Source: Escherichia coli
GTDB lineage: Bacteria > Pseudomonadota > Gammaproteobacteria > Enterobacterales > Enterobacteriaceae
NCBI RefSeq assembly: GCF_016903815.1
Contig: NZ_CP069973.1
Direction: 5' to 3' (one strand)
DNA length: 64,000 nt
Under the pieces are notes generated by a model, which did not search any database, was not told where the DNA came from, and saw only the letters and a list, made by a program, of their open reading frames with translations. The translations under genes and the position numbers were made by a program. The first letter of the stretch is position 1. Each line of letters begins with the position of its first letter. Positions 3,813 through 18,550 of the stretch are shown one piece after another.

Positions 3813-4232
3813 TCAAAGAAACCATTCCGGCTTAACACCAAATCGGGCTGAAAGTGCCTTAATGTGGGATATCGTCAGGGATCGTTGCCCAGACAAAATC
3901 TGACTGACCAGGGATTTAGAGCCGATTTCGTTCTTCAAATCCGCGTAGGTCAGATTATGTTGATCAATCAGCGTACGAAGTAACGCCACGCCAACCGGCA
4001 TTGCTGCAACGGCTTTGTCGAACTCGGCAAACTTTTCGTTGTTGTTTTCATATTCTGCAATGCGGCTCGCCAGAAAGTCGATAAGTGGATTGGTGTCATC
4101 TTCTTCAATCAAATATTCGACCAGTTCCAGTGCTTCACGATAATCATCTTCTGAGTCACTACCTCCCAGAAAGGGGACTGCATTGACCAGTTCTCTTGTT
4201 GCTTTAACAGCGCGTGCAGCATTAGCAGTCAT
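3813..4232 (-). CDS. HigA-like antitoxin, XRE-family HTH
   Basis: 139-aa ORF; C-terminal HTH (EIGSKSLVSQILSGQRSLTISHIKALSARFGV) resembling E. coli HigA; overlaps upstream toxin gene by 4 bp. Confidence 0.75.
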   Translation of the reverse strand: MTANAARAVKATRELVNAVPFLGGSDSEDDYREALELVEYLIEEDDTNPLIDFLASRIAEYENNNEKFAEFDKAVAAMPVGVALLRTLIDQHNLTYADLKNEIGSKSLVSQILSGQRSLTISHIKALSARFGVKPEWFL

Positions 4233-4540
4233 TCTTTGTTCTCTCTGTAGTAACGTGTCAGTTTGTCATACTCTGCGTGATTCGTTATGTGCTTCACAAA
4301 GAACCGCTTATTAACAAAGTTTATGTAGGCAATAACCCTAAGATTGTTCCCGCCGACATCCAGAACGTACCATTTGTTGCGATATCTAAAATTGTCGAGG
4401 TTGGGAAACGCCGTTCGCATTTCTTCTGGTGTAGAAAAATCCGTTTCCTTAATAACCCGATACAATGAGTATAGAGCCAGAGCGTCGTTAGGATATTTGC
4501 GCGCACACTCTTCAAATGGCGCTTTCGAAATGATGTGCAT
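4229..4540 (-). CDS. HigB-like toxin (RelE/ParE superfamily mRNA interferase)
   Basis: 103-aa ORF resembling E. coli HigB (MH.I...A..D...KYP...FP.LDNF.Y....YV..VGGN.LRV.A...F......I....H.EYD); toxin-first order typical of higBA; AAGGAAG RBS. Confidence 0.75.
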   Translation of the reverse strand: MHIISKAPFEECARKYPNDALALYSLYRVIKETDFSTPEEMRTAFPNLDNFRYRNKWYVLDVGGNNLRVIAYINFVNKRFFVKHITNHAEYDKLTRYYRENKE

Positions 4541-4706: not shown

Positions 4707-5177
4707 CTACTCTTCTTCCACCGCTAACTGCGCGAATCCGCCATTCCCTTCCCAGCCTTCCAGTCGTTGATAAACGGTTTCTACCGCATCTTTAATCGGC
4801 TGGGTCATCGGGTAGTAAAAGCCGACGATATCCGGCTGGATGCCGAGGAAAATCACTTCGCCAATGTCTTCTTTTAACTGGTCGATAAGGTAGTTCAACG
4901 GCATGTTATGGGTAGTCATCATAAACATCTCGGCGATATCATCCGGATCGATGATGCGGATCTCGCCGGGGTTTAGCCCCATATCCGTGGCGTCGACAAT
5001 CAGCAGTCGTGTCGGGCGCAGTTCGCGAATAGCGACAATGTCGTTTTCCGGTGCGCTACCGCCGTCAATCACCACCCAGTTACCTTTCGGCGCGGCGGCG
5101 CACTTTTCCGCCAGCAGCGGACCTGCGCCATCATCGCCCATCATGCTATTGCCAACACAGAGTAAAACGTCAGTCAC
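4707..5177 (-). CDS. hycI: Hydrogenase 3 maturation endopeptidase
   Basis: 156-aa ORF, last gene of hyc operon; matches recalled HycI. Confidence 0.9.
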   Translation of the reverse strand: MTDVLLCVGNSMMGDDGAGPLLAEKCAAAPKGNWVVIDGGSAPENDIVAIRELRPTRLLIVDATDMGLNPGEIRIIDPDDIAEMFMMTTHNMPLNYLIDQLKEDIGEVIFLGIQPDIVGFYYPMTQPIKDAVETVYQRLEGWEGNGGFAQLAVEEE

Positions 5178-9548: not shown

Positions 9549-11375
9549 TCAGGCTCCTCGTGAAACAATAATCACCACCAGCACCGCCAGTTCAACCAGC
9601 GCCATCCGGCGGAACAGCAACGCACTGCCTTCGCACTGCCAGCCCGGCACCAGCGACACCGGATTCAGCCATTTGCGCAGTTTCAGCACTGGCGCAAACG
9701 CCTGTTTCACCGGCATGGCAAAACCGTGAGCGGTAATCACCATTGATTTTTCGTGGTCGTAGCCGCACACCCAGGCCGCGCCGCGGGAACGCGACGGCAA
9801 ACGGTCGCCTTTGCAAATCGCCATAATGATGAATGGCAGCAGCGGGCAGGCAATCAGCAGCAACGTGATCATGGGTTGAGAAACGGTGGTGTTAGCAGGC
9901 TCCAGCGGCAGAGGTACAGCAGCAGAGAGCATCGGCAGCAGCCACGGCGCAGCAACACCGCCAATTACGCAGCAAATCGCCAGTGCCACTACGCTTACGC
10001 TCATCAGGAGCGGCGCACAGGTGGCGTTTTCGGCTTCTTTGGTACGCGGCGCGCCGAGGAACGTGACGCCATAGACTTTCGCCATACACATCACCGCTAG
10101 CGCACCGGTAATTGCCAGACCCACTGCGAGCAGCGGCCCCAGCAGACGGGCAACAAACGCGCCACTATTGCTCAGTTTGAAGAAGGATTGATAGATAACC
10201 CATTCCCCGGCAAACCCGTTCAGCGGCGGCAACGCAGCCATTGCCATCAGCCCAACTAACATGGCGATGGAGATAACCGGCATTTTCTTGCCAATACCAC
10301 CGAGTTTTTCGATATCGCGATGACCGGTACGGAACCAGACGCTCCCCGCCCCGAGGAAAAGTACGCTTTTGAACAGGCTATGGTTAAGCAGATGGTACAG
10401 ACCACCGACCAGGCCAAGAGCAATCAGCGCCGGTTGTTCGAGCGCGATACCCGTTACGCCAGCGCCCAGCCCCAGCAGGATAATGCCGATATTTTCCAGG
10501 GTGTGGTAAGCCAGCAGGCGCTGGATGTTGTGTTCCATCAACGCATACAGACCACCGACGAACGCGGTGATCATGCCGAGCACCAGCAGCGCGATTCCCC
10601 ACCACAGCGGTGCATTACCGCCCAGCAGTGACAGGGTTAAAATGCCCAGCAGGCCAATTTTCATGACTACCGTGGAAAACAACGCGGCAGCTGGCGCAGA
10701 GGCGTTAGCATGTGCCTGCGGCACCCAGCCGTGCAGCGGAATAATCCCGGCCAGCAGGCCAAAGCCAATCACACCGAGCAGCCAGATATCGGAACCGAGC
10801 GGCAGCTGTTGCATACGCATATCCAGCAGGCGCAGATCCAGCGTGCCGTAACGCTGCCACAGCAGCCAGCAAGCAATCGCCAGCAGCAGAGTGCCAAGAC
10901 GCCCCAGTGCAAACCACAGTTTGCCCTCTTTGCTGTTGTTGGTGAGGAACACCGCGCACAAGGCCATGATTTCTGCCATTACCACGAACATACCGAGGTT
11001 GCTGGCGATGACAGCACAGACGGCAGCAGCCATCAACATATTGATCTGCAAGCCGTTGCACTTCACCTGCGCGTGGCGATGCCAGTCAATGTTGTAGAGG
11101 CTGACAAACAGACCGCACAGGCCGAGCGTAATCAGCCAAATCGCGTTAAGCGGAGAGATTTGCACATCGTAGCTTACTAGCGACAGCGCACCGCTCACGC
11201 CAACCGCGCCAGTCAGTACAGTGAAGCCCGCGGCTGCCGTATACAGACTACCCACCGCGCCGCCAATTCCGGCTATCCAGCCGCTTAGCGCCTTTTGAAA
11301 AGAAAAGAGAAATGCCAGAACAGCGGCGGCGACAAACCACGCCACGCCGCTATTGATCAGGGAAATTGCGCTCAT
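9549..11375 (-). CDS. hycC: Formate hydrogenlyase membrane subunit (NuoL/antiporter-like)
   Basis: 608-aa polytopic membrane ORF. Confidence 0.9.
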   Translation of the reverse strand: MSAISLINSGVAWFVAAAVLAFLFSFQKALSGWIAGIGGAVGSLYTAAAGFTVLTGAVGVSGALSLVSYDVQISPLNAIWLITLGLCGLFVSLYNIDWHRHAQVKCNGLQINMLMAAAVCAVIASNLGMFVVMAEIMALCAVFLTNNSKEGKLWFALGRLGTLLLAIACWLLWQRYGTLDLRLLDMRMQQLPLGSDIWLLGVIGFGLLAGIIPLHGWVPQAHANASAPAAALFSTVVMKIGLLGILTLSLLGGNAPLWWGIALLVLGMITAFVGGLYALMEHNIQRLLAYHTLENIGIILLGLGAGVTGIALEQPALIALGLVGGLYHLLNHSLFKSVLFLGAGSVWFRTGHRDIEKLGGIGKKMPVISIAMLVGLMAMAALPPLNGFAGEWVIYQSFFKLSNSGAFVARLLGPLLAVGLAITGALAVMCMAKVYGVTFLGAPRTKEAENATCAPLLMSVSVVALAICCVIGGVAAPWLLPMLSAAVPLPLEPANTTVSQPMITLLLIACPLLPFIIMAICKGDRLPSRSRGAAWVCGYDHEKSMVITAHGFAMPVKQAFAPVLKLRKWLNPVSLVPGWQCEGSALLFRRMALVELAVLVVIIVSRGA

Positions 11376-11983
11376 TTAGCCTCTCCACTTTGAGCCTGCT
11401 GAAACAAGGTGAGATCGCCAAAGTCCGTGTTAAAGGTCAGCTCACGCTTACGTTTGCTGACGCGGGCGATATCGGTGTTATCCACCAGATGCAGGGCTTT
11501 AGTCGGGCACATCCGCACGCAGGCCGGACCTTGTTCATCAAAGCTACAAAGGTCACATTTGACGGCGATCGCGCGAATACCTGGCACCCAGTCAAGCAAT
11601 GTGCTGACACGCGCCGGAGCAGGCGGTGCCGGTGGCGCTTTCGGGGTATTGGCGTTTGCCGGAATATCCAGCGGACGGCTGCCGGAAAATTCAATTGCGC
11701 CAAACGGGCAGGCGATGCCGCACAGTTTGCAGCTTACGCACAGGCTTTCATTCAACTGCACGGCCCCATCAACGCGGGTGATGGCGTTAACCGGGCAGAC
11801 CACCGCACAGGGCGCATCTTCACAGTGGTGACAGAGCTGCGGCGCAGATTCTTTTTCATTGAGCATCACTCGCAGGCGCGGCATTGATTGCAGGCCGTGC
11901 TGGCGATGCGTCTCTGAACAGGCGGCCTCACAGGTGTGGCAGCCGATACAGAGCGTGGAGTCAGCAATTACAAAACGATTCAC
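11372..11983 (-). CDS. hycB: Formate hydrogenlyase FeS subunit
   Basis: 203-aa ORF with four CxxCxxCxxxCP clusters. Confidence 0.9.
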   Translation of the reverse strand: MNRFVIADSTLCIGCHTCEAACSETHRQHGLQSMPRLRVMLNEKESAPQLCHHCEDAPCAVVCPVNAITRVDGAVQLNESLCVSCKLCGIACPFGAIEFSGSRPLDIPANANTPKAPPAPPAPARVSTLLDWVPGIRAIAVKCDLCSFDEQGPACVRMCPTKALHLVDNTDIARVSKRKRELTFNTDFGDLTLFQQAQSGEAK

Positions 11984-12002
11984 CAGGCATTCCTCAGGTG
12001 AT

Positions 12003-12058
12003 TGTCATTTTTGACGAAAACATGCCGATGAAATGTCATTTTCGACACTCATCGACAC
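12003..12058. promoter_or_regulatory. Candidate FhlA upstream activating sequence (TGTCATTTTCGACA repeats) in hycA-hycB intergenic region
   Basis: Motif tgtcattttcgacactcatcgaca (12034..12057) near-identical to the one at 12687..12708. Confidence 0.5.
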
Positions 12059-12107
12059 GCCCATCCCCAAACAGGCGTAACGCCTGCAAAACGGGCAAAG
12101 CCTCAGC

Positions 12108-12569
12108 TCATGCTGCCGGGCTTTGTCCCTTTACCAGTTGGCTTAAATTCACCGGCACATTGTTTTCAATGGCGGTGTATAAGCTGTCGTAAACGCCAGC
12201 GATTTTTTCGAGATAGTGTTCCAGAACCTGTTCGCGATCGCGGATGTTGACCTTGCCATCAATCATGCCGTCAATGCTCAGTTGCGCCTGCGCAATCCGC
12301 TGTTTGTCTTCACCATCTTTTGTTTCGACGTAATACTCGATGGTGTGGCTGTTAAAGCCATCCGCCAGGGTGACGTAAATGCGAAAATGTTCAAAAAGGA
12401 CGAAACAGAGTTCTTTGTCCGGCGCGCAGCTCATGGCGTGATGCAGGCGCGCTTTCGATAACGTGATCCCCTGAACCAGCGAATTGCAGTAGATGTGCCA
12501 CTGGTCCTGTAGGCGACGATGCCGCTGTGCGATGTAATCGGCTTTCTCGCTTATTTCCCAAATAGTCAT
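12108..12569 (-). CDS. hycA: Formate hydrogenlyase regulatory protein HycA
   Basis: 153-aa ORF, first gene of hyc operon. Confidence 0.85.
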   Translation of the reverse strand: MTIWEISEKADYIAQRHRRLQDQWHIYCNSLVQGITLSKARLHHAMSCAPDKELCFVLFEHFRIYVTLADGFNSHTIEYYVETKDGEDKQRIAQAQLSIDGMIDGKVNIRDREQVLEHYLEKIAGVYDSLYTAIENNVPVNLSQLVKGQSPAA

Positions 12570-12606
12570 TGTCAGGTTACCCGTTTAACAGAGATGCCAG
12601 CTTTAA

Positions 12607-12622
12607 GCATTTTTTGTGCCAA
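12607..12622 (-). promoter_or_regulatory. Sigma-54 promoter for hyc operon (TTGGCAC-N5-ATGC on minus strand)
   Basis: Reverse complement of 12607..12622 reads TTGGCACAAAAAATGC with GG-N10-GC spacing. Confidence 0.6.
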
Positions 12623-12670
12623 CTTTTAATTTATTGTTATTAAAGCGATTTTTAAGCTAAAGATGAATTT

Positions 12671-12710
12671 CGTCGCCGTGTCGACGTGTCATTTCGACAT
12701 CATCGACATT
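12671..12710. promoter_or_regulatory. Candidate FhlA UAS between divergent hyc and hyp promoters
   Basis: gtgtcgacgtgtcatttcgacatcatcgacat with TGTC/GACA repeats. Confidence 0.5.
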
Positions 12711-12734
12711 ATTCACCGCAGGGATAATCAACAC

Positions 12735-12750
12735 TGGCACAATTATTGCT
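12735..12750 (+). promoter_or_regulatory. Sigma-54 promoter for hyp operon (TGGCAC-N5-TTGCT)
   Basis: Exact -24/-12 consensus TGGCACaattaTTGCT about 30 bp upstream of hypA start. Confidence 0.7.
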
Positions 12751-12780
12751 TGTAGCTGGCAATAGTTAATGGGAGGCGAT

Positions 12781-13131
12781 ATGCACGAAATAACCCTCTG
12801 CCAACGGGCACTGGAATTGATCGAACAGCAGGCCGCAAAACACGGCGCAAAACGCGTAACTGGGGTCTGGCTCAAAATTGGCGCATTTTCTTGTGTCGAA
12901 ACCAGCTCTCTTGCCTTTTGTTTTGATCTGGTTTGCCGCGGCAGCGTGGCGGAAGGTTGTAAACTGCACCTCGAAGAACAAGAGGCCGAATGCTGGTGTG
13001 AAACATGCCAACAGTATGTGACGCTACTGACCCAGCGCGTCCGCCGCTGTCCACAGTGTCATGGTGACATGCTACAGATTGTGGCAGACGACGGTTTACA
13101 GATTCGGCGGATAGAAATAGACCAGGAGTGA
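12781..13131 (+). CDS. hypA: Hydrogenase maturation nickel metallochaperone
   Basis: 116 aa from MHEITLCQ; CxxC...CxxC zinc site. Confidence 0.9.
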   Translation: MHEITLCQRALELIEQQAAKHGAKRVTGVWLKIGAFSCVETSSLAFCFDLVCRGSVAEGCKLHLEEQEAECWCETCQQYVTLLTQRVRRCPQCHGDMLQIVADDGLQIRRIEIDQE

Positions 13132-13134
13132 GCG

Positions 13135-14007
13135 ATGTGTACAACATGCGGTTGCGGTGAAGGCAACCTGTATATCGAGGGTGATGAACATAACCCTCAT
13201 TCCGCGTTTCGTAGCGCGCCATTTGCCCCGGCGGCACGCCCGAAGATGAAAATCACCGGCATTAAAACGCCTGAATTTACCCCCAGCCAGACTGAAGAAG
13301 GCGACCTGCATTACGGTCATGGCGAAGCGGGCACTCACGCGCCGGGCATGAGCCAGCGTCGGATGCTGGAAGTCGAAATTGACGTGCTGGACAAAAATAA
13401 CCGTCTGGCTGAACGCAACCGCGCGCGCTTTGCTGCCCGCAAGCAACTGGTGCTCAACCTGGTTTCCAGCCCTGGTTCCGGTAAAACCACCCTGCTGACG
13501 GAAACCTTAATGCGCCTGAAAGACAGCGTTCCGTGCGCGGTTATTGAAGGCGATCAGCAAACCGTGAACGATGCCGCACGCATTCGCGCTACCGGCACAC
13601 CAGCGATTCAGGTGAATACCGGTAAAGGCTGCCATCTTGACGCACAGATGATTGCCGACGCCGCACCGCGCCTGCCACTGGACGATAACGGTATTCTGTT
13701 TATCGAAAACGTCGGCAACCTCGTGTGCCCGGCCAGCTTCGATCTCGGTGAAAAACACAAAGTGGCGGTGCTTTCCGTTACCGAAGGTGAAGACAAACCG
13801 CTGAAATATCCGCATATGTTTGCCGCAGCTTCGCTGATGCTGCTCAACAAAGTTGACTTGCTGCCGTATCTCAACTTTGACGTTGAGAAGTGCATCGCCT
13901 GCGCCCGCGAAGTCAATCCAGAAATTGAAATCATCCTTATTTCCGCCACCAGCGGCGAAGGGATGGACCAGTGGCTGAACTGGCTGGAGACACAGCGATG
14001 TGCATAG
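13135..14007 (+). CDS. hypB: Hydrogenase nickel incorporation GTPase
   Basis: 290 aa; N-terminal [10 protein letters not shown] motif and P-loop GSGKTTL. Confidence 0.9.
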
Positions 14008-16471: not shown

Positions 16472-18550
16472 ATGTCATATACACCGATGAGTGATCTCGG
16501 ACAACAAGGGTTGTTCGACATCACTCGGACACTATTGCAGCAGCCCGATCTGGCCTCGCTGTGTGAGGCTCTTTCGCAACTGGTAAAGCGTTCTGCGCTC
16601 GCCGACAACGCGGCTATTGTGTTGTGGCAAGCGCAGACTCAACGTGCGTCTTATTACGCATCGCGTGAAAAAGACACCCCCATTAAATATGAAGACGAAA
16701 CTGTTCTGGCACACGGTCCGGTACGCAGCATTTTGTCGCGCCCTGATACGCTGCATTGCAGTTACGAAGAATTTTGTGAAACCTGGCCGCAGCTGGCCGC
16801 AGGTGGGCTATACCCCAAATTTGGTCACTATTGCCTGATGCCACTGGCGGCGGAAGGGCATATTTTTGGTGGCTGTGAATTTATTCGTTATGACGATCGC
16901 CCCTGGAGCGAAAAAGAGTTCAATCGTCTGCAAACATTTACGCAGATCGTTTCTGTCGTCACCGAACAAATCCAGAGCCGCGTCGTCAATAATGTCGACT
17001 ATGAGTTGTTATGCCGGGAGCGCGATAACTTCCGCATCCTGGTTGCCATTACCAACGCGGTGCTTTCCCGCCTGGATATGGACGAACTGGTCAGCGAAGT
17101 CGCCAAAGAAATCCATTACTACTTCGACATTGACGATATCAGCATCGTCTTACGCAGCCACCGTAAAAACAAACTCAACATCTACTCCACTCACTATCTT
17201 GATAAACAGCATCCCGCCCACGAACAGAGCGAAGTCGATGAAGCCGGAACCCTCACCGAACGCGTGTTCAAAAGTAAAGAGATGTTGTTGATTAATCTCC
17301 ACGAGCGGGACGATTTAGCCCCCTATGAACGCATGTTGTTCGACACCTGGGGCAACCAGATTCAAACCTTGTGCCTGTTACCGCTGATGTCTGGCAACAC
17401 CATGCTGGGCGTGCTGAAACTGGCGCAATGCGAAGAGAAAGTATTTACCACTACCAATCTGAGCTTACTGCGCCAGATTGCCGAACGTGTGGCAATCGCT
17501 GTCGATAACGCCCTCGCCTATCAGGAAATTCATCGTCTGAAAGAACGGCTGGTTGATGAAAACCTCGCCCTGACCGAGCAGCTCAACAATGTTGATAGTG
17601 AATTTGGCGAGATTATTGGCCGCAGCGAAGCCATGTACAGCGTACTTAAACAAGTTGAAATGGTGGCGCAAAGTGACAGTACCGTGCTGATCCTCGGTGA
17701 AACTGGCACGGGTAAAGAGCTGATTGCCCGTGCTATCCATAATCTCAGTGGGCGTAATAATCGCCGCATGGTCAAAATGAACTGCGCGGCAATGCCTGCC
17801 GGATTGCTGGAGAGCGATCTGTTTGGTCATGAGCGTGGGGCTTTTACCGGTGCCAGCGCCCAGCGTATCGGTCGTTTTGAACTGGCGGATAAAAGCTCCC
17901 TGTTCCTCGACGAAGTGGGCGATATGCCACTGGAGTTACAGCCGAAGTTGCTGCGTGTATTACAGGAACAGGAGTTTGAACGTCTCGGCAGCAACAAAAT
18001 CATTCAGACGGACGTGCGTCTAATCGCCGCAACTAACCGCGATCTGAAAAAAATGGTCGCCGACCGTGAGTTCCGTAGCGATCTCTATTACCGCCTGAAT
18101 GTATTCCCGATCCACCTGCCGCCACTACGCGAGCGTCCGGAAGATATTCCGCTGCTGGCGAAAGCCTTTACCTTCAAAATTGCCCGTCGTCTGGGGCGCA
18201 ATATCGACAGCATTCCTGCGGAGACGCTGCGCACCTTGAGCAACATGGAGTGGCCGGGTAACGTACGCGAACTGGAAAATGTCATTGAGCGCGCGGTATT
18301 GCTAACACGCGGCAACGTGCTGCAGCTGTCATTGCCTGATATTGCTTTACCGGAGCCTGAAACGCCGCCTGCCGCAACGGTTGTCGCCCAAGAGGGCGAA
18401 GATGAATATCAGTTGATTGTTCGCGTGCTGAAAGAAACCAACGGCGTGGTTGCCGGGCCTAAAGGCGCTGCGCAACGTCTGGGGCTGAAACGCACGACCC
18501 TGCTGTCACGGATGAAGCGGCTTGGAATTGATAAATCGGCATTGATTTAA
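16472..18550 (+). CDS. fhlA: Formate hydrogenlyase transcriptional activator (sigma-54 enhancer-binding protein)
   Basis: 692 aa from MSYTPMSDLGQQG; AAA+ sigma-54 activator motifs (GETGTGKE, GAFTGA) and C-terminal HTH. Confidence 0.9.
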   Translation: MSYTPMSDLGQQGLFDITRTLLQQPDLASLCEALSQLVKRSALADNAAIVLWQAQTQRASYYASREKDTPIKYEDETVLAHGPVRSILSRPDTLHCSYEEFCETWPQLAAGGLYPKFGHYCLMPLAAEGHIFGGCEFIRYDDRPWSEKEFNRLQTFTQIVSVVTEQIQSRVVNNVDYELLCRERDNFRILVAITNAVLSRLDMDELVSEVAKEIHYYFDIDDISIVLRSHRKNKLNIYSTHYLDKQHPAHEQSEVDEAGTLTERVFKSKEMLLINLHERDDLAPYERMLFDTWGNQIQTLCLLPLMSGNTMLGVLKLAQCEEKVFTTTNLSLLRQIAERVAIAVDNALAYQEIHRLKERLVDENLALTEQLNNVDSEFGEIIGRSEAMYSVLKQVEMVAQSDSTVLILGETGTGKELIARAIHNLSGRNNRRMVKMNCAAMPAGLLESDLFGHERGAFTGASAQRIGRFELADKSSLFLDEVGDMPLELQPKLLRVLQEQEFERLGSNKIIQTDVRLIAATNRDLKKMVADREFRSDLYYRLNVFPIHLPPLRERPEDIPLLAKAFTFKIARRLGRNIDSIPAETLRTLSNMEWPGNVRELENVIERAVLLTRGNVLQLSLPDIALPEPETPPAATVVAQEGEDEYQLIVRVLKETNGVVAGPKGAAQRLGLKRTTLLSRMKRLGIDKSALI

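Follow-up and report, generated by a model that had tools for sequence, protein, structure and literature searches.

The stretch between hycB and hypA in the 64,000 nucleotides of Escherichia coli chromosomal DNA analysed here (the window) is very probably the control region of the formate regulon, with two divergent sigma-54 promoters on which FhlA would act from two clusters of sites. The assignment is based on sequence elements that are non-random and conserved across the family (Table 1), on the identity of the promoters with sites mapped by chromatin immunoprecipitation (ChIP), and on the presence of fhlA itself. The region is the long-studied formate hydrogenlyase switch of E. coli, which is already known and textbook material.

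Table 1. Features of the hyc-hyp control region and its genes (window coordinates).
Feature	Coordinates	Strand	Sequence and remarks
hycB CDS	11372..11983	-	GTG start at 11983; second gene of the hyc operon; open reading frame and RefSeq 'formate hydrogenlyase subunit HycB', identical DNA
Box A	12003..12019		TGTCATTTTTGACGAAA; FhlA-type site (predicted), 20 nt upstream of the hycB start; highest intergenic conservation
Box B with direct TCGACA repeat	12034..12057		TGTCATTTTCGACACTCATCGACA; hycB-hycA copy of the motif; core of imperfect palindrome 12022-12060
hycA CDS	12108..12569	-	FhlA antagonist; first gene of the hyc operon; stop 12108-12110; NCBIfam equivalog NF007567, RefSeq
hyc sigma-54 promoter	12621..12606	-	TGGCACAAAAAATGCT; faces hycA; GG 12620-12619, GC 12608-12607; identical to ChIP-seq site OS27
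A/T-rich spacer	12622..12663		Between hyc promoter and site cluster; IHF-like TAACAATAAATTA at 12627-12639 (-)
Inter-promoter site cluster	12679..12708		TGTCGACGTGTCATTTCGACATCATCGACA; four half-sites, two forward and two reverse; contains motif copy 12687-12708
hyp sigma-54 promoter	12735..12750	+	TGGCACAATTATTGCT; faces hypA; GG 12736-37, GC 12748-49; identical to ChIP-seq site OS28
hypA CDS	12781..13131	+	First gene of hypABCDE-fhlA; RefSeq start; NCBIfam HypA
fhlA	16472..18550	+	Sigma-54 enhancer-binding protein, predicted binder of the boxes; NCBIfam equivalog NF011958, RefSeq

The locus and its genes

The 951 bases around the hyc-hyp control region have 100% identity to many complete genomes and were matched in 5425 of 5426 complete E. 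coli genomes at 95-100% identity. RefSeq places hycB, hycA and hypA on these 951 bases, and this annotation, together with the NCBIfam equivalogs, bears out the gene identities given in a preliminary description of this DNA that was made from its sequence. HycA scored 301 bits against an equivalog cutoff of 180. FhlA, whose gene lies 3.7 kb downstream of the control region at the end of the hyp operon, matched over its full length with 1547 bits (cutoff 830). The ribosome-binding site of hypA, GGAGGC at 12772-77, is conserved. A scan of positions 11900-12900 for sigma-70 promoters and terminators returned nothing above chance.

The same locus with identical promoter motifs is found in E. coli K-12, and we found nothing of substance that differs. 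The differences between the window and K-12 lie only outside this region, for example at a HigB/HigA-like pair adjoining hycI. The K-12 hyc and hyp NtrA promoters and the upstream activating sequences of FhlA were reportedly described by Lutz et al. (Mol Microbiol, 1990) and by Schlensog, Lutz and Bock (JBC, 1994), and further work on the system is said to be that of Hopper et al. (JBC, 1994) and Leonhartsberger et al. (Eur J Biochem, 2000). The wording 'divergent NtrA-dependent promoters' appears in a literature title on this system, which was characterised biochemically from 1990 to 2000 and has been re-confirmed by genome-wide sigma-54 mapping.

To follow the elements across the family we compared the region with 80 other Enterobacteriaceae loci, giving 81 sequences from about 15 genera, in which the hycB-hycA spacer is represented by 77 distinct sequences. 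The intergenic runs of at least four columns with at least 90% conservation were the promoter cores, the TGTC/TCGACA boxes, box A, and the ribosome-binding regions of hypA and hycB, with the first three of these accounting for almost all of the conserved intergenic bases. From genus to genus the spacers between elements change in length by about one helical turn at a time, as expected for dependence on the face of the helix.

Two divergent sigma-54 promoters

When the whole 64 kb was scored with a sigma-54 matrix derived from 186 promoters, the top three scores all fell within 12485-12750. Ranked first and second were the two promoters that the preliminary description had proposed, a TGGCAC-N5-TTGCT promoter facing hyp and a GG-N10-GC promoter on the opposite strand facing hyc, so the motif scan which it had suggested as a check places both as expected. 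The hyp promoter matches TGGCAC-N5-TTGCW exactly, with its GG and GC 10 nt apart, and is the sole exact match to TGGCACNNNNNTTGCW in the window; its 19.0 bits compare with a maximum of 18.7 over 20 shuffles. The hyc promoter has one mismatch (ATGCT) and scored 15.3 bits, which is inside the shuffle range (mean maximum 14.6, sd 1.9), and its significance therefore comes from conservation and ChIP data instead. The two promoters are separated by 114 bp, and we infer that transcription starts near 12595 (hyc) and near 12761 (hyp).

Both promoter 17-mers are letter-for-letter those of the E. coli sigma-54 ChIP-seq sites OS27 (hycA) and OS28 (hypA), each marked as previously confirmed in a study that also records activation of hypA by FhlA (PMC4591121). 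Binding of sigma-54 holoenzyme within the hycA/hypA spacer has also been found by gSELEX. Across the orthologous regions both promoters occupy constant alignment columns, and all 81 sequences carry them, the hyc promoter at 13.4 bits or more with conserved TGCCA and AAGCA cores, and the hyp promoter at 15.1 bits or more.

The third high-scoring motif, TGGCACATCTACTGCA at 12485-12500 (-) inside hycA (15.05 bits), was rejected as a selected promoter because the conserved codons Trp-His-Ile-Tyr-Cys create it and the free switching of the Cys between TGC and TGT destroys its GC. It reached 12 bits in only 42 of 80 orthologues and is absent from the sigma-54 ChIP-seq table. We also noted that 12595-12621 and 12735-12761 are 81% complementary, a mirror similarity of the two promoters over 27 nt. 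The part beyond the -24/-12 core, AGCTGGCA, is unconserved outside Escherichia, and the similarity is probably incidental.

A repeated motif in two site clusters

As the preliminary description had observed, a nearly identical motif occurs between the promoters and again between hycB and hycA. The hycB-hycA copy and the inter-promoter copy, TGTCATTTCGACATCATCGACA (12687-12708), agree at 22 of 24 positions with two 1-nt gaps, the former carrying an extra T and an extra C. Local alignment of one spacer with the other scored 36, a value reached by none of 2000 shuffles (mean 15.9, maximum 31). The degenerate formula given earlier for the motif fits the hycB-hycA copy and, owing to the two gaps, misfits the inter-promoter copy. 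The 13-mer TGTCATTTCGACA, which had been presented as duplicated, has related copies, but as an exact string it occurs once in the window (12687-12699).

Both sites share a palindromic layout of four half-sites, and nowhere in the window are TCGACA/TGTCAT-type hexamers denser: each site has four, compared with two in the next best cluster and a mean of 0.08 per 60 nt. A cluster of TGTCR/YGACA sequences in hycI (4985-5044) is coding sequence without TGTCAT/TCGACA hexamers and has no FhlA matrix score in the top 25 of the window (i.e., all are below about 10.6 bits); we regard it as chance.

The half-sites are strongly conserved. In the inter-promoter cluster the TGTC at 12687-90 is invariant in all 81 sequences and the flanking GAC.TGTCATT..TCG.CA is conserved, while in the hycB-hycA cluster the TCGACA sequences at 12042-47 and 12052-57 are conserved at 90% or more and keep their 10-nt spacing in 74 of 77 sequences. 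A related third box, TGTCATTTTTGACG at 12003-12016, which was absent from the preliminary description, exceeds every other element in conservation. It belongs to box A, of which the part GTCATTTTTGACGAAA (12004-12019) is at least 90% conserved in the 77 distinct sequences and whose 20-nt distance to the start of hycB is kept in 65 of them. The region upstream of fdhF carries GTCAGTTTTGACG, with one mismatch to box A.

The inter-promoter cluster reportedly serves hyc, and the hycB-hycA cluster hyp, in the work of Schlensog et al. (1994) and Hopper et al. (1994). The centre of the inter-promoter cluster is about 74 bp from the hyc GG, or about -98 from the inferred hyc start. For the hycB-hycA cluster the distance is about 730 bp upstream of the inferred hyp start. 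The inter-promoter cluster also lies close to the hyp GG, at about 42 bp, and even so this distance is constrained, which implies that assigning exactly one cluster to each promoter may oversimplify.

FhlA as the predicted binding protein

FhlA is a formate-responsive activator of the NtrC family and occupies one face of the DNA upstream of both fdhF and hyc. Its published matrix was built from the sites of Schlensog 1994 and Leonhartsberger 2000 (PMC7658346), and the site model is a 14-mer of the TGTC-N6-GACA type taken from footprints. The best match of the 64 kb is at 12034-12047 (17.5 of a possible 17.6 bits) and the second best at 12695-12708 (16.1 bits), with box A at 12.2 bits (12003-12016), scores that are partly circular since the source sites most probably include the hyc/hyp boxes. 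On the orthologous inter-promoter sites of other genera the matrix gave a median of 11 bits and a minimum of 4.6, moderate values which indicate that it captures the conserved layout poorly. The 16-mer consensus quoted in a review, CATTTCGTACGAAATG, had no ungapped match with three or fewer mismatches anywhere in the window, and the partial or gapped matches were limited to CATTTCG at 12690-96 and CATTTTTGACGAAA at 12006-19. We put this down to the quoted string being limited, given that the matrix from the same primary sources fits. The matrix peaks, the phylogenetic footprinting across 81 sequences and the fdhF relative of box A together support the earlier suggestion that the motif copies are plausible FhlA enhancer sites.

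Alternative readings of the repeated motif

The element between hycB and hycA might also, or instead, act in RNA, which we consider improbable. On the hyc mRNA, positions 12060-12022 would form a long hairpin immediately before the ribosome-binding site of hycB, and could be envisaged as an intercistronic stabiliser, a processing site or a translation element setting the ratio of HycA to HycB-I. Consistent with this, the predicted fold of E. coli sense RNA 12062-11965 has an energy of -36.1 kcal/mol (z = -4.7), equalled by none of 200 shuffles, and box A is nearly invariant and mostly fixed in its distance from the hycB start. There are also a few changes on both sides that keep the stem, such as ATG/CAT in E. 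coli and ACG/CGT in Superficieibacter, and the paired-cell percentage and the covariation score were beaten by only 1 and 2 of 500 shuffles, respectively. However, RNAalifold retained only the invariant 4-bp TGTC/GACA stems, with a covariation term of +0.16 and no compensatory pair. Over the full stem 75.9% of cells were paired compared with 73.7% in shuffles, and the counts of pairs changed on both sides were not unusual (63 of 500 shuffles). The outer pairs are broken in 11-15 of 31 sequences, a deletion in the Enterobacter, Lelliottia and Huaxiibacter clade removes the 3' arm entirely, and a hairpin of this kind arises automatically from a palindromic protein-binding site. An Rfam scan of 11000-14000 gave no match at an E-value of 1 or below. 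As a conserved RNA hairpin the hycA-hycB spacer was thus set aside, being strong in E. coli and having comparative evidence that is inconclusive to negative.

We give similarly low credence to the idea that the hycB-hycA cluster, with box A and its 40-bp palindrome or hairpin, works at both levels and affects hycB expression or the fate of the hycA/hycB mRNA post-transcriptionally as well. The same applies to a separate idea, to which the spacer differences of about one helical turn could point, in which FhlA assembled between the promoters would be phase-locked to hyp as well as to hyc.

It is very unlikely that another regulator, such as HyfR (a paralogue of FhlA) or ModE, is the main occupant of the boxes, with FhlA acting elsewhere. 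ModE is a reported secondary activator of hyc, and HyfR, which groups with FhlA by orthology clustering, could recognise similar sites, but a matrix derived from FhlA footprints peaks exactly at the boxes, related half-site clusters lie upstream of all FhlA promoters examined (fdhF, hydN, hyfA), and conservation of the boxes follows the linked hyc-hyp genes wherever these are present. That the duplicated motif is a functionless chance likeness of two short A/T-rich spacers, in keeping with the lack of enrichment of the 13-mer, found 4 times at up to two mismatches in the window where 3.07 were expected, can be dismissed as effectively refuted by the conservation data, as judged from sequence comparison, in which the boxes persist across about 15 genera while the spacer around them is scrambled, and it is equally at odds with the unmatched alignment score and with the densest half-site clusters of the 64 kb.

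Proposed mechanism

With the motif copies taken as FhlA enhancer sites, we propose that sigma-54 RNA polymerase would wait as a closed complex at both divergent -24/-12 promoters. Formate-activated FhlA, encoded at the end of the hyp operon, would bind the TGTC/GACA-type half-sites at 12679-12708 and 12003-12057 and, with ATP, convert the closed complexes to open ones through DNA looping. HycA, the first hyc product, would oppose FhlA, and read-through from hyp into fhlA would provide positive autoregulation; according to the literature the hypABCDE-fhlA operon is self-regulated. We infer the occupancy of each box by FhlA, and likewise the part played by IHF, from the sequence or take it from the literature.

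At the hyc promoter, bending of the DNA may be aided by the A/T-rich tract. Its TAACAATAAATTA has one mismatch to the IHF consensus WATCAANNNNTTR, and matches of this quality are at chance level in the window (51 compared with 47 expected). The perfect consensus is present at the corresponding place in 27 of 81 sequences, and the spacer columns TTTTTAA..TTGA are partly conserved. IHF is included among the listed activators of hyc and hyp (PMC2636881), and ModE, like IHF, acts on both according to the literature.

The control region is relevant to the engineering of hydrogen production, and our analysis leaves the known picture unchanged. The near-invariance of box A, the layout of four half-sites and the helical-turn steps of the spacers are modest detail that could aid the design of a minimal formate-responsive promoter.

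Comparison with other systems

The fdhF, hydN-hypF and hyfA promoters resemble hyc and hyp in that clusters of TGTC/GACA-type half-sites lie 60-110 bp upstream of a sigma-54 -24/-12 promoter, those of hydN and hyfA being measured 5' of their TGGCA. Unlike these, hyc/hyp has one cluster inside a transcription unit, about 730 bp from a promoter. In addition, the two hyc/hyp clusters alone have in common the long motif of 22-24 nt, TGTCATTT(T)CGACA(C)TCATCGACA, for which the fdhF, hydN and hyfA upstream regions gave no match at the thresholds used. The enhancers of NorR at norVW and NtrC at glnAp2 are also made up of multiple close inverted-repeat sites, placed upstream of a sigma-54 promoter, for an oligomeric AAA+ activator (PMC2831303), and systems of this type use DNA looping, often with IHF. 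The hyc/hyp region differs from them in that it is common to two divergent promoters and has its second cluster far off in the neighbouring operon, and the NorR half-site, GT-N7-AC, is unlike those described here.

A published counterpart is in Salmonella Typhimurium, where the orthologous hycA and hypA motifs, TGGCATGGAAAATGCT and TGGCATAAATATTGCT, fall in matching alignment columns. ChIP-chip showed sigma-54 holoenzyme at both of these, and expression depended on sigma-54, by 26-fold for hyc and 5.6-fold for hyp (PMC3844500). They differ from the E. coli motifs by a C-to-T change at position 6 of the -24 element, and there are small differences in the spacers of the site clusters.

The hyc-hyp Control Region and its Setting

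This feature, the hyc-hyp control region of the formate regulon in E. coli, was already known. The preliminary description observed here two divergent sigma-54 promoters and a repeated motif proposed as FhlA enhancers; we confirmed the observation, and the interpretation is supported. Of 5426 complete E. coli genomes, 5425 match the 951 bases at 11900-12850, many with 100% identity, and the match falls under annotated hycB, hycA, and hypA. The annotated gene order is ascG-ascFB, a HigB/HigA-like pair, hycIHGFEDCBA (-), and then hypABCDE-fhlA (+). For hypA, the mechanical ORF begins at an in-frame ATG at 12769 and the RefSeq start is 12781; the latter is favored because a conserved GGAGGC (12772-12777) lies at ribosome-binding distance from it. 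Between ascB and hycI lie two (-) genes, one encoding a HigB-family toxin (4229-4540), the other helix-turn-helix antitoxin-like (3813-4232). Among 5426 complete E. coli genomes, only 1091 cover this 841-bp stretch to ≥80%; it is, therefore, a variable accessory insertion adjoining the hyc operon.

Features of the hyc-hyp control region and associated genes
Feature	Coordinates	Strand	Sequence	Position or basis
hyp sigma-54 promoter	12735-12750	+	TGGCACAATTATTGCT	31 nt upstream of hypA ATG
hyc sigma-54 promoter	12621-12606	-	TGGCACAAAAAATGCT	37 nt upstream of hycA ATG
hyc -12	12605-12609		AAGCA	Conserved run, hycA-hypA spacer
hyc -24	12617-12621		TGCCA	Conserved run, hycA-hypA spacer
TGTC	12687-12690		TGTC	Conserved run, hycA-hypA spacer
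hyp -24	12735-12739		TGGCA	Conserved run, hycA-hypA spacer
hyp -12	12743-12749		TTATTGC	Conserved run, hycA-hypA spacer
hypA ribosome-binding site				Conserved run, hycA-hypA spacer
hycB ribosome-binding region				Conserved run, hycB-hycA spacer
Box A run	12004-12019		GTCATTTTTGACGAAA	Conserved run, hycB-hycA spacer
TCGACA	12042-12047		TCGACA	Conserved run, hycB-hycA spacer
TCGACA	12052-12057		TCGACA	Conserved run, hycB-hycA spacer
Inter-promoter cluster	12679-12708		TGTCG-ACG-TGTCA-TTT-CGACA-TCAT-CGACA	Half-sites
hycB-hycA cluster	12025-12057		TGCCG-ATGAAA-TGTCA-TTTT-CGACA-CTCAT-CGACA	Half-sites
hycB	11372-11983	-		ORF and annotation
hycA	12108-12569	-		NCBIfam equivalog HycA, 301 bits (cutoff 180)
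hypA	12781-13131	+		Annotation and NCBIfam HypA
fhlA	16472-18550	+		NCBIfam equivalog FhlA, 1547 bits (cutoff 830)

Sigma-54 Promoters

Both promoters of the preliminary description, TGGCAC-N5-TTGCT facing hyp and GG-N10-GC facing hyc, are present. When the whole 64-kb window was scanned with a matrix of 186 sigma-54 promoters (reproduced in PMC7658346), its three best scores all fell within 12485-12750: the hyp promoter (19.0 bits), the hyc promoter (15.3 bits), and a site inside hycA. Only the hyp score exceeded every shuffle, so the hyc motif needs outside support. Published data supply sites at both promoters: TTGGCACAAAAAATGCT (hycA) and CTGGCACAATTATTGCT (hypA), identical to the window sequence, are the sigma-54 ChIP-seq sites OS27 (hyc promoter) and OS28 (hyp promoter) of Bonocora et al. 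(2015), both marked as previously confirmed, with hypA given as FhlA-activated (PMC4591121). The same table gives values of 26 (hycA) and 20 (hypA); if this column is the predicted distance from start to start codon, transcription would begin near 12595 (-) and 12761 (+). The holoenzyme also bound in the hycA/hypA spacer in gSELEX (Shimada et al., 2021), and the orthologous Salmonella motifs were ChIP-chip positive, their operons being 26-fold and 5.6-fold sigma-54 dependent (PMC3844500).

Together, the promoters make up an inverted repeat of 27 nt with 81% complementarity (12595-12621 vs. 12735-12761; TGGCACAAAAAATGCTTAAAGCTGGCA vs. TGGCACAATTATTGCTTGTAGCTGGCA). The repeat reaches ~11 nt beyond the -12 element, an extension conserved only within Escherichia.

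The site inside hycA (TGGCACATCTACTGCA, 12485-12500, -; 15.05 bits, rank 3 in 64 kb) has the same direction as hycA. We rejected it as a promoter: it is built by the conserved codons Trp-His-Ile-Tyr-Cys and looks like a coding by-product, since the Cys codon interchanges freely between TGC and TGT in 80 orthologs. The published ChIP-seq table has no separate entry for this site, which lies 120 bp from the hyc promoter and would be hard to resolve from it there.

Repeated Motif and FhlA Sites

The near-identical motif copies noted between the promoters and between hycB and hycA are real: TGTCATTTTCGACACTCATCGACA (12034-12057) and TGTCATTTCGACATCATCGACA (12687-12708) align with two single-base gaps at a score of 36, compared with 15.9 ± 2.3 (maximum 31) in 2000 shuffles, and nowhere else in the window are TCGACA/TGTCAT-type hexamers clustered as densely as at these two locations. 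Two corrections are cosmetic: the degenerate formula offered for the motif fits the hycB-hycA copy but no other, and the 13-mer in the title of the preliminary description has a single exact occurrence.

A 14-column FhlA matrix from 13 characterized sites has the consensus TGTCGAAAATGACA (PMC7658346, citing Schlensog, Lutz & Bock, 1994; Leonhartsberger et al., 2000). Its best match in the window was 12034-12047 (17.5 of a possible 17.6 bits), followed by 12695-12708 (16.1 bits), with 12.2 bits at 12003-12016, although this test is partly circular because the matched sites were almost certainly used in building the matrix. What the scan establishes is that the repeated motifs coincide with published FhlA sites. 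The 16-mer FhlA consensus quoted in a review, CATTTCGTACGAAATG, had no ungapped match with ≤3 mismatches in the window, only half-matches such as CATTTCG (12690-12696) and CATTTTTGACGAAA (12006-12019).

Each cluster has the same layout of four half-sites, two forward and two reverse. Box A (12003-12019) lies 31 nt, or three helical turns, from box B (12034-12057). FhlA has been described as a tetramer binding one side of the DNA, and this layout and spacing suit an oligomeric activator on one helix face. In the MG1655 fdhF upstream region box A recurs with one mismatch (GTCAGTTTTGACG), which fits a shared FhlA site better than a hycB-specific element. TGTC/GACA clusters precede TGGCA in the hydN and hyfA upstream regions; compared with these and fdhF, the long 22-24-nt motif is specific to hyc/hyp.

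Four TGTCR/YGACA pentamers (GTCGACA...TGTCG...CGACAATGTCG) within hycI (4985-5044) equal both clusters in density on a loose measure. As an FhlA site this cluster was rejected: it is coding, has no TGTCAT/TCGACA hexamers, and has no FhlA score among the top 25 of the window; it is probably due to chance.

Conservation and Spacing

A HycA scan with one genome per species gave 80 loci from Escherichia, Salmonella, Citrobacter, Klebsiella, Raoultella, Enterobacter, Kluyvera, Kosakonia, Lelliottia, and other genera. In all 80, hypA is divergent from hycA and hycB comes next after hycA. In 81/81 sequences, the hyc promoter reaches 13.4 bits or more and the hyp promoter 15.1 bits or more. With conserved runs defined as ≥4 columns each ≥90% conserved, the hycA-hypA spacer (188-223 nt) holds none besides the four promoter elements, TGTC, and the hypA ribosome-binding site, and the pattern GAC.TGTCATT..TCG.CA...TCG.CAT is discernible in all aligned sequences. 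The hycB-hycA spacer varies from 70 to 149 nt and contains box A, the best-conserved element overall, which the preliminary description did not include.

Spacing classes between genera differ by about 10-11 bp: 45, 56-59, or 67-68 nt from the hyc GG to TGTC, 47-49 or 58-60 nt from TGTC to the hyp GG, and 25-29 or 35-38 nt from box A to TCGACA; the two TCGACA are 10 nt apart in 74/77 sequences. These steps may reflect constraints of helical phase, among them one linking the inter-promoter cluster to the hyp promoter, a reading that is suggestive only because few independent insertion/deletion events underlie it. This comparison adds minor refinements: a near-invariant box A, a symmetric layout of four half-sites, and spacers that change in steps of about one helical turn.

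Proposed Mechanism

Relative to the inferred starts, the inter-promoter cluster (center ~12694) sits at about -98 for hyc and about -67 for hyp. The hycB-hycA cluster (center ~12030) falls within the hyc transcription unit, at about -730 relative to the hyp start. Work by Schlensog and by Hopper, both in 1994, reportedly assigned the inter-promoter cluster to hyc and the hycB-hycA cluster to hyp.

Sigma-54 holoenzyme would form closed complexes on both promoters; FhlA with formate bound would assemble on the clusters, contact the polymerase by looping, and open the promoters through ATP hydrolysis. IHF, one of the reported activators of hyc and hyp (PMC2636881), is probably required at hyc. 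An A/T-rich tract between the hyc promoter and the inter-promoter cluster holds an IHF-like motif (TAACAATAAATTA, 12627-12639, -) with one mismatch; it is not significant by itself in E. coli, and 27/81 sequences have a perfect IHF consensus at the same place. HycA exerts negative feedback on FhlA, and co-transcription of fhlA with hyp provides positive autoregulation.

Palindromes and RNA Folding

An imperfect 40-bp palindrome (12022-12060) is centered on box B. In the hyc mRNA sense (minus strand, 12062-11965) the E. coli sequence folds into a long hairpin (-36.1 kcal/mol, z = -4.7) immediately upstream of the hycB ribosome-binding site. RNAalifold kept only invariant 4-bp stems, with no compensatory pairs; long-stem pairing was equivocal (75.9% paired vs. 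73.7% in shuffles), and one arm is wholly absent from the clade comprising Enterobacter, Lelliottia, and Huaxiibacter. The simplest view is that a palindromic protein-binding site yields the hairpin as a by-product. There was no Rfam family match in 11000-14000, and no sigma-70 promoter or terminator signal above chance in 11900-12900.

Between the hycB-hycA cluster and the end of hycA is an Escherichia-specific insert (12062-12137) with an unremarkable RNA fold (z = -1.8). Within it are CAGGCGTAACGCCTG (12072-12086), a small palindrome without mismatches, and an inverted repeat of 19 nt (12084-12102 and 12119-12137) that spans the hycA stop codon. At this position Klebsiella and Enterobacter (spacer 70-86 nt) have no palindrome, and Salmonella and Citrobacter have different ones.
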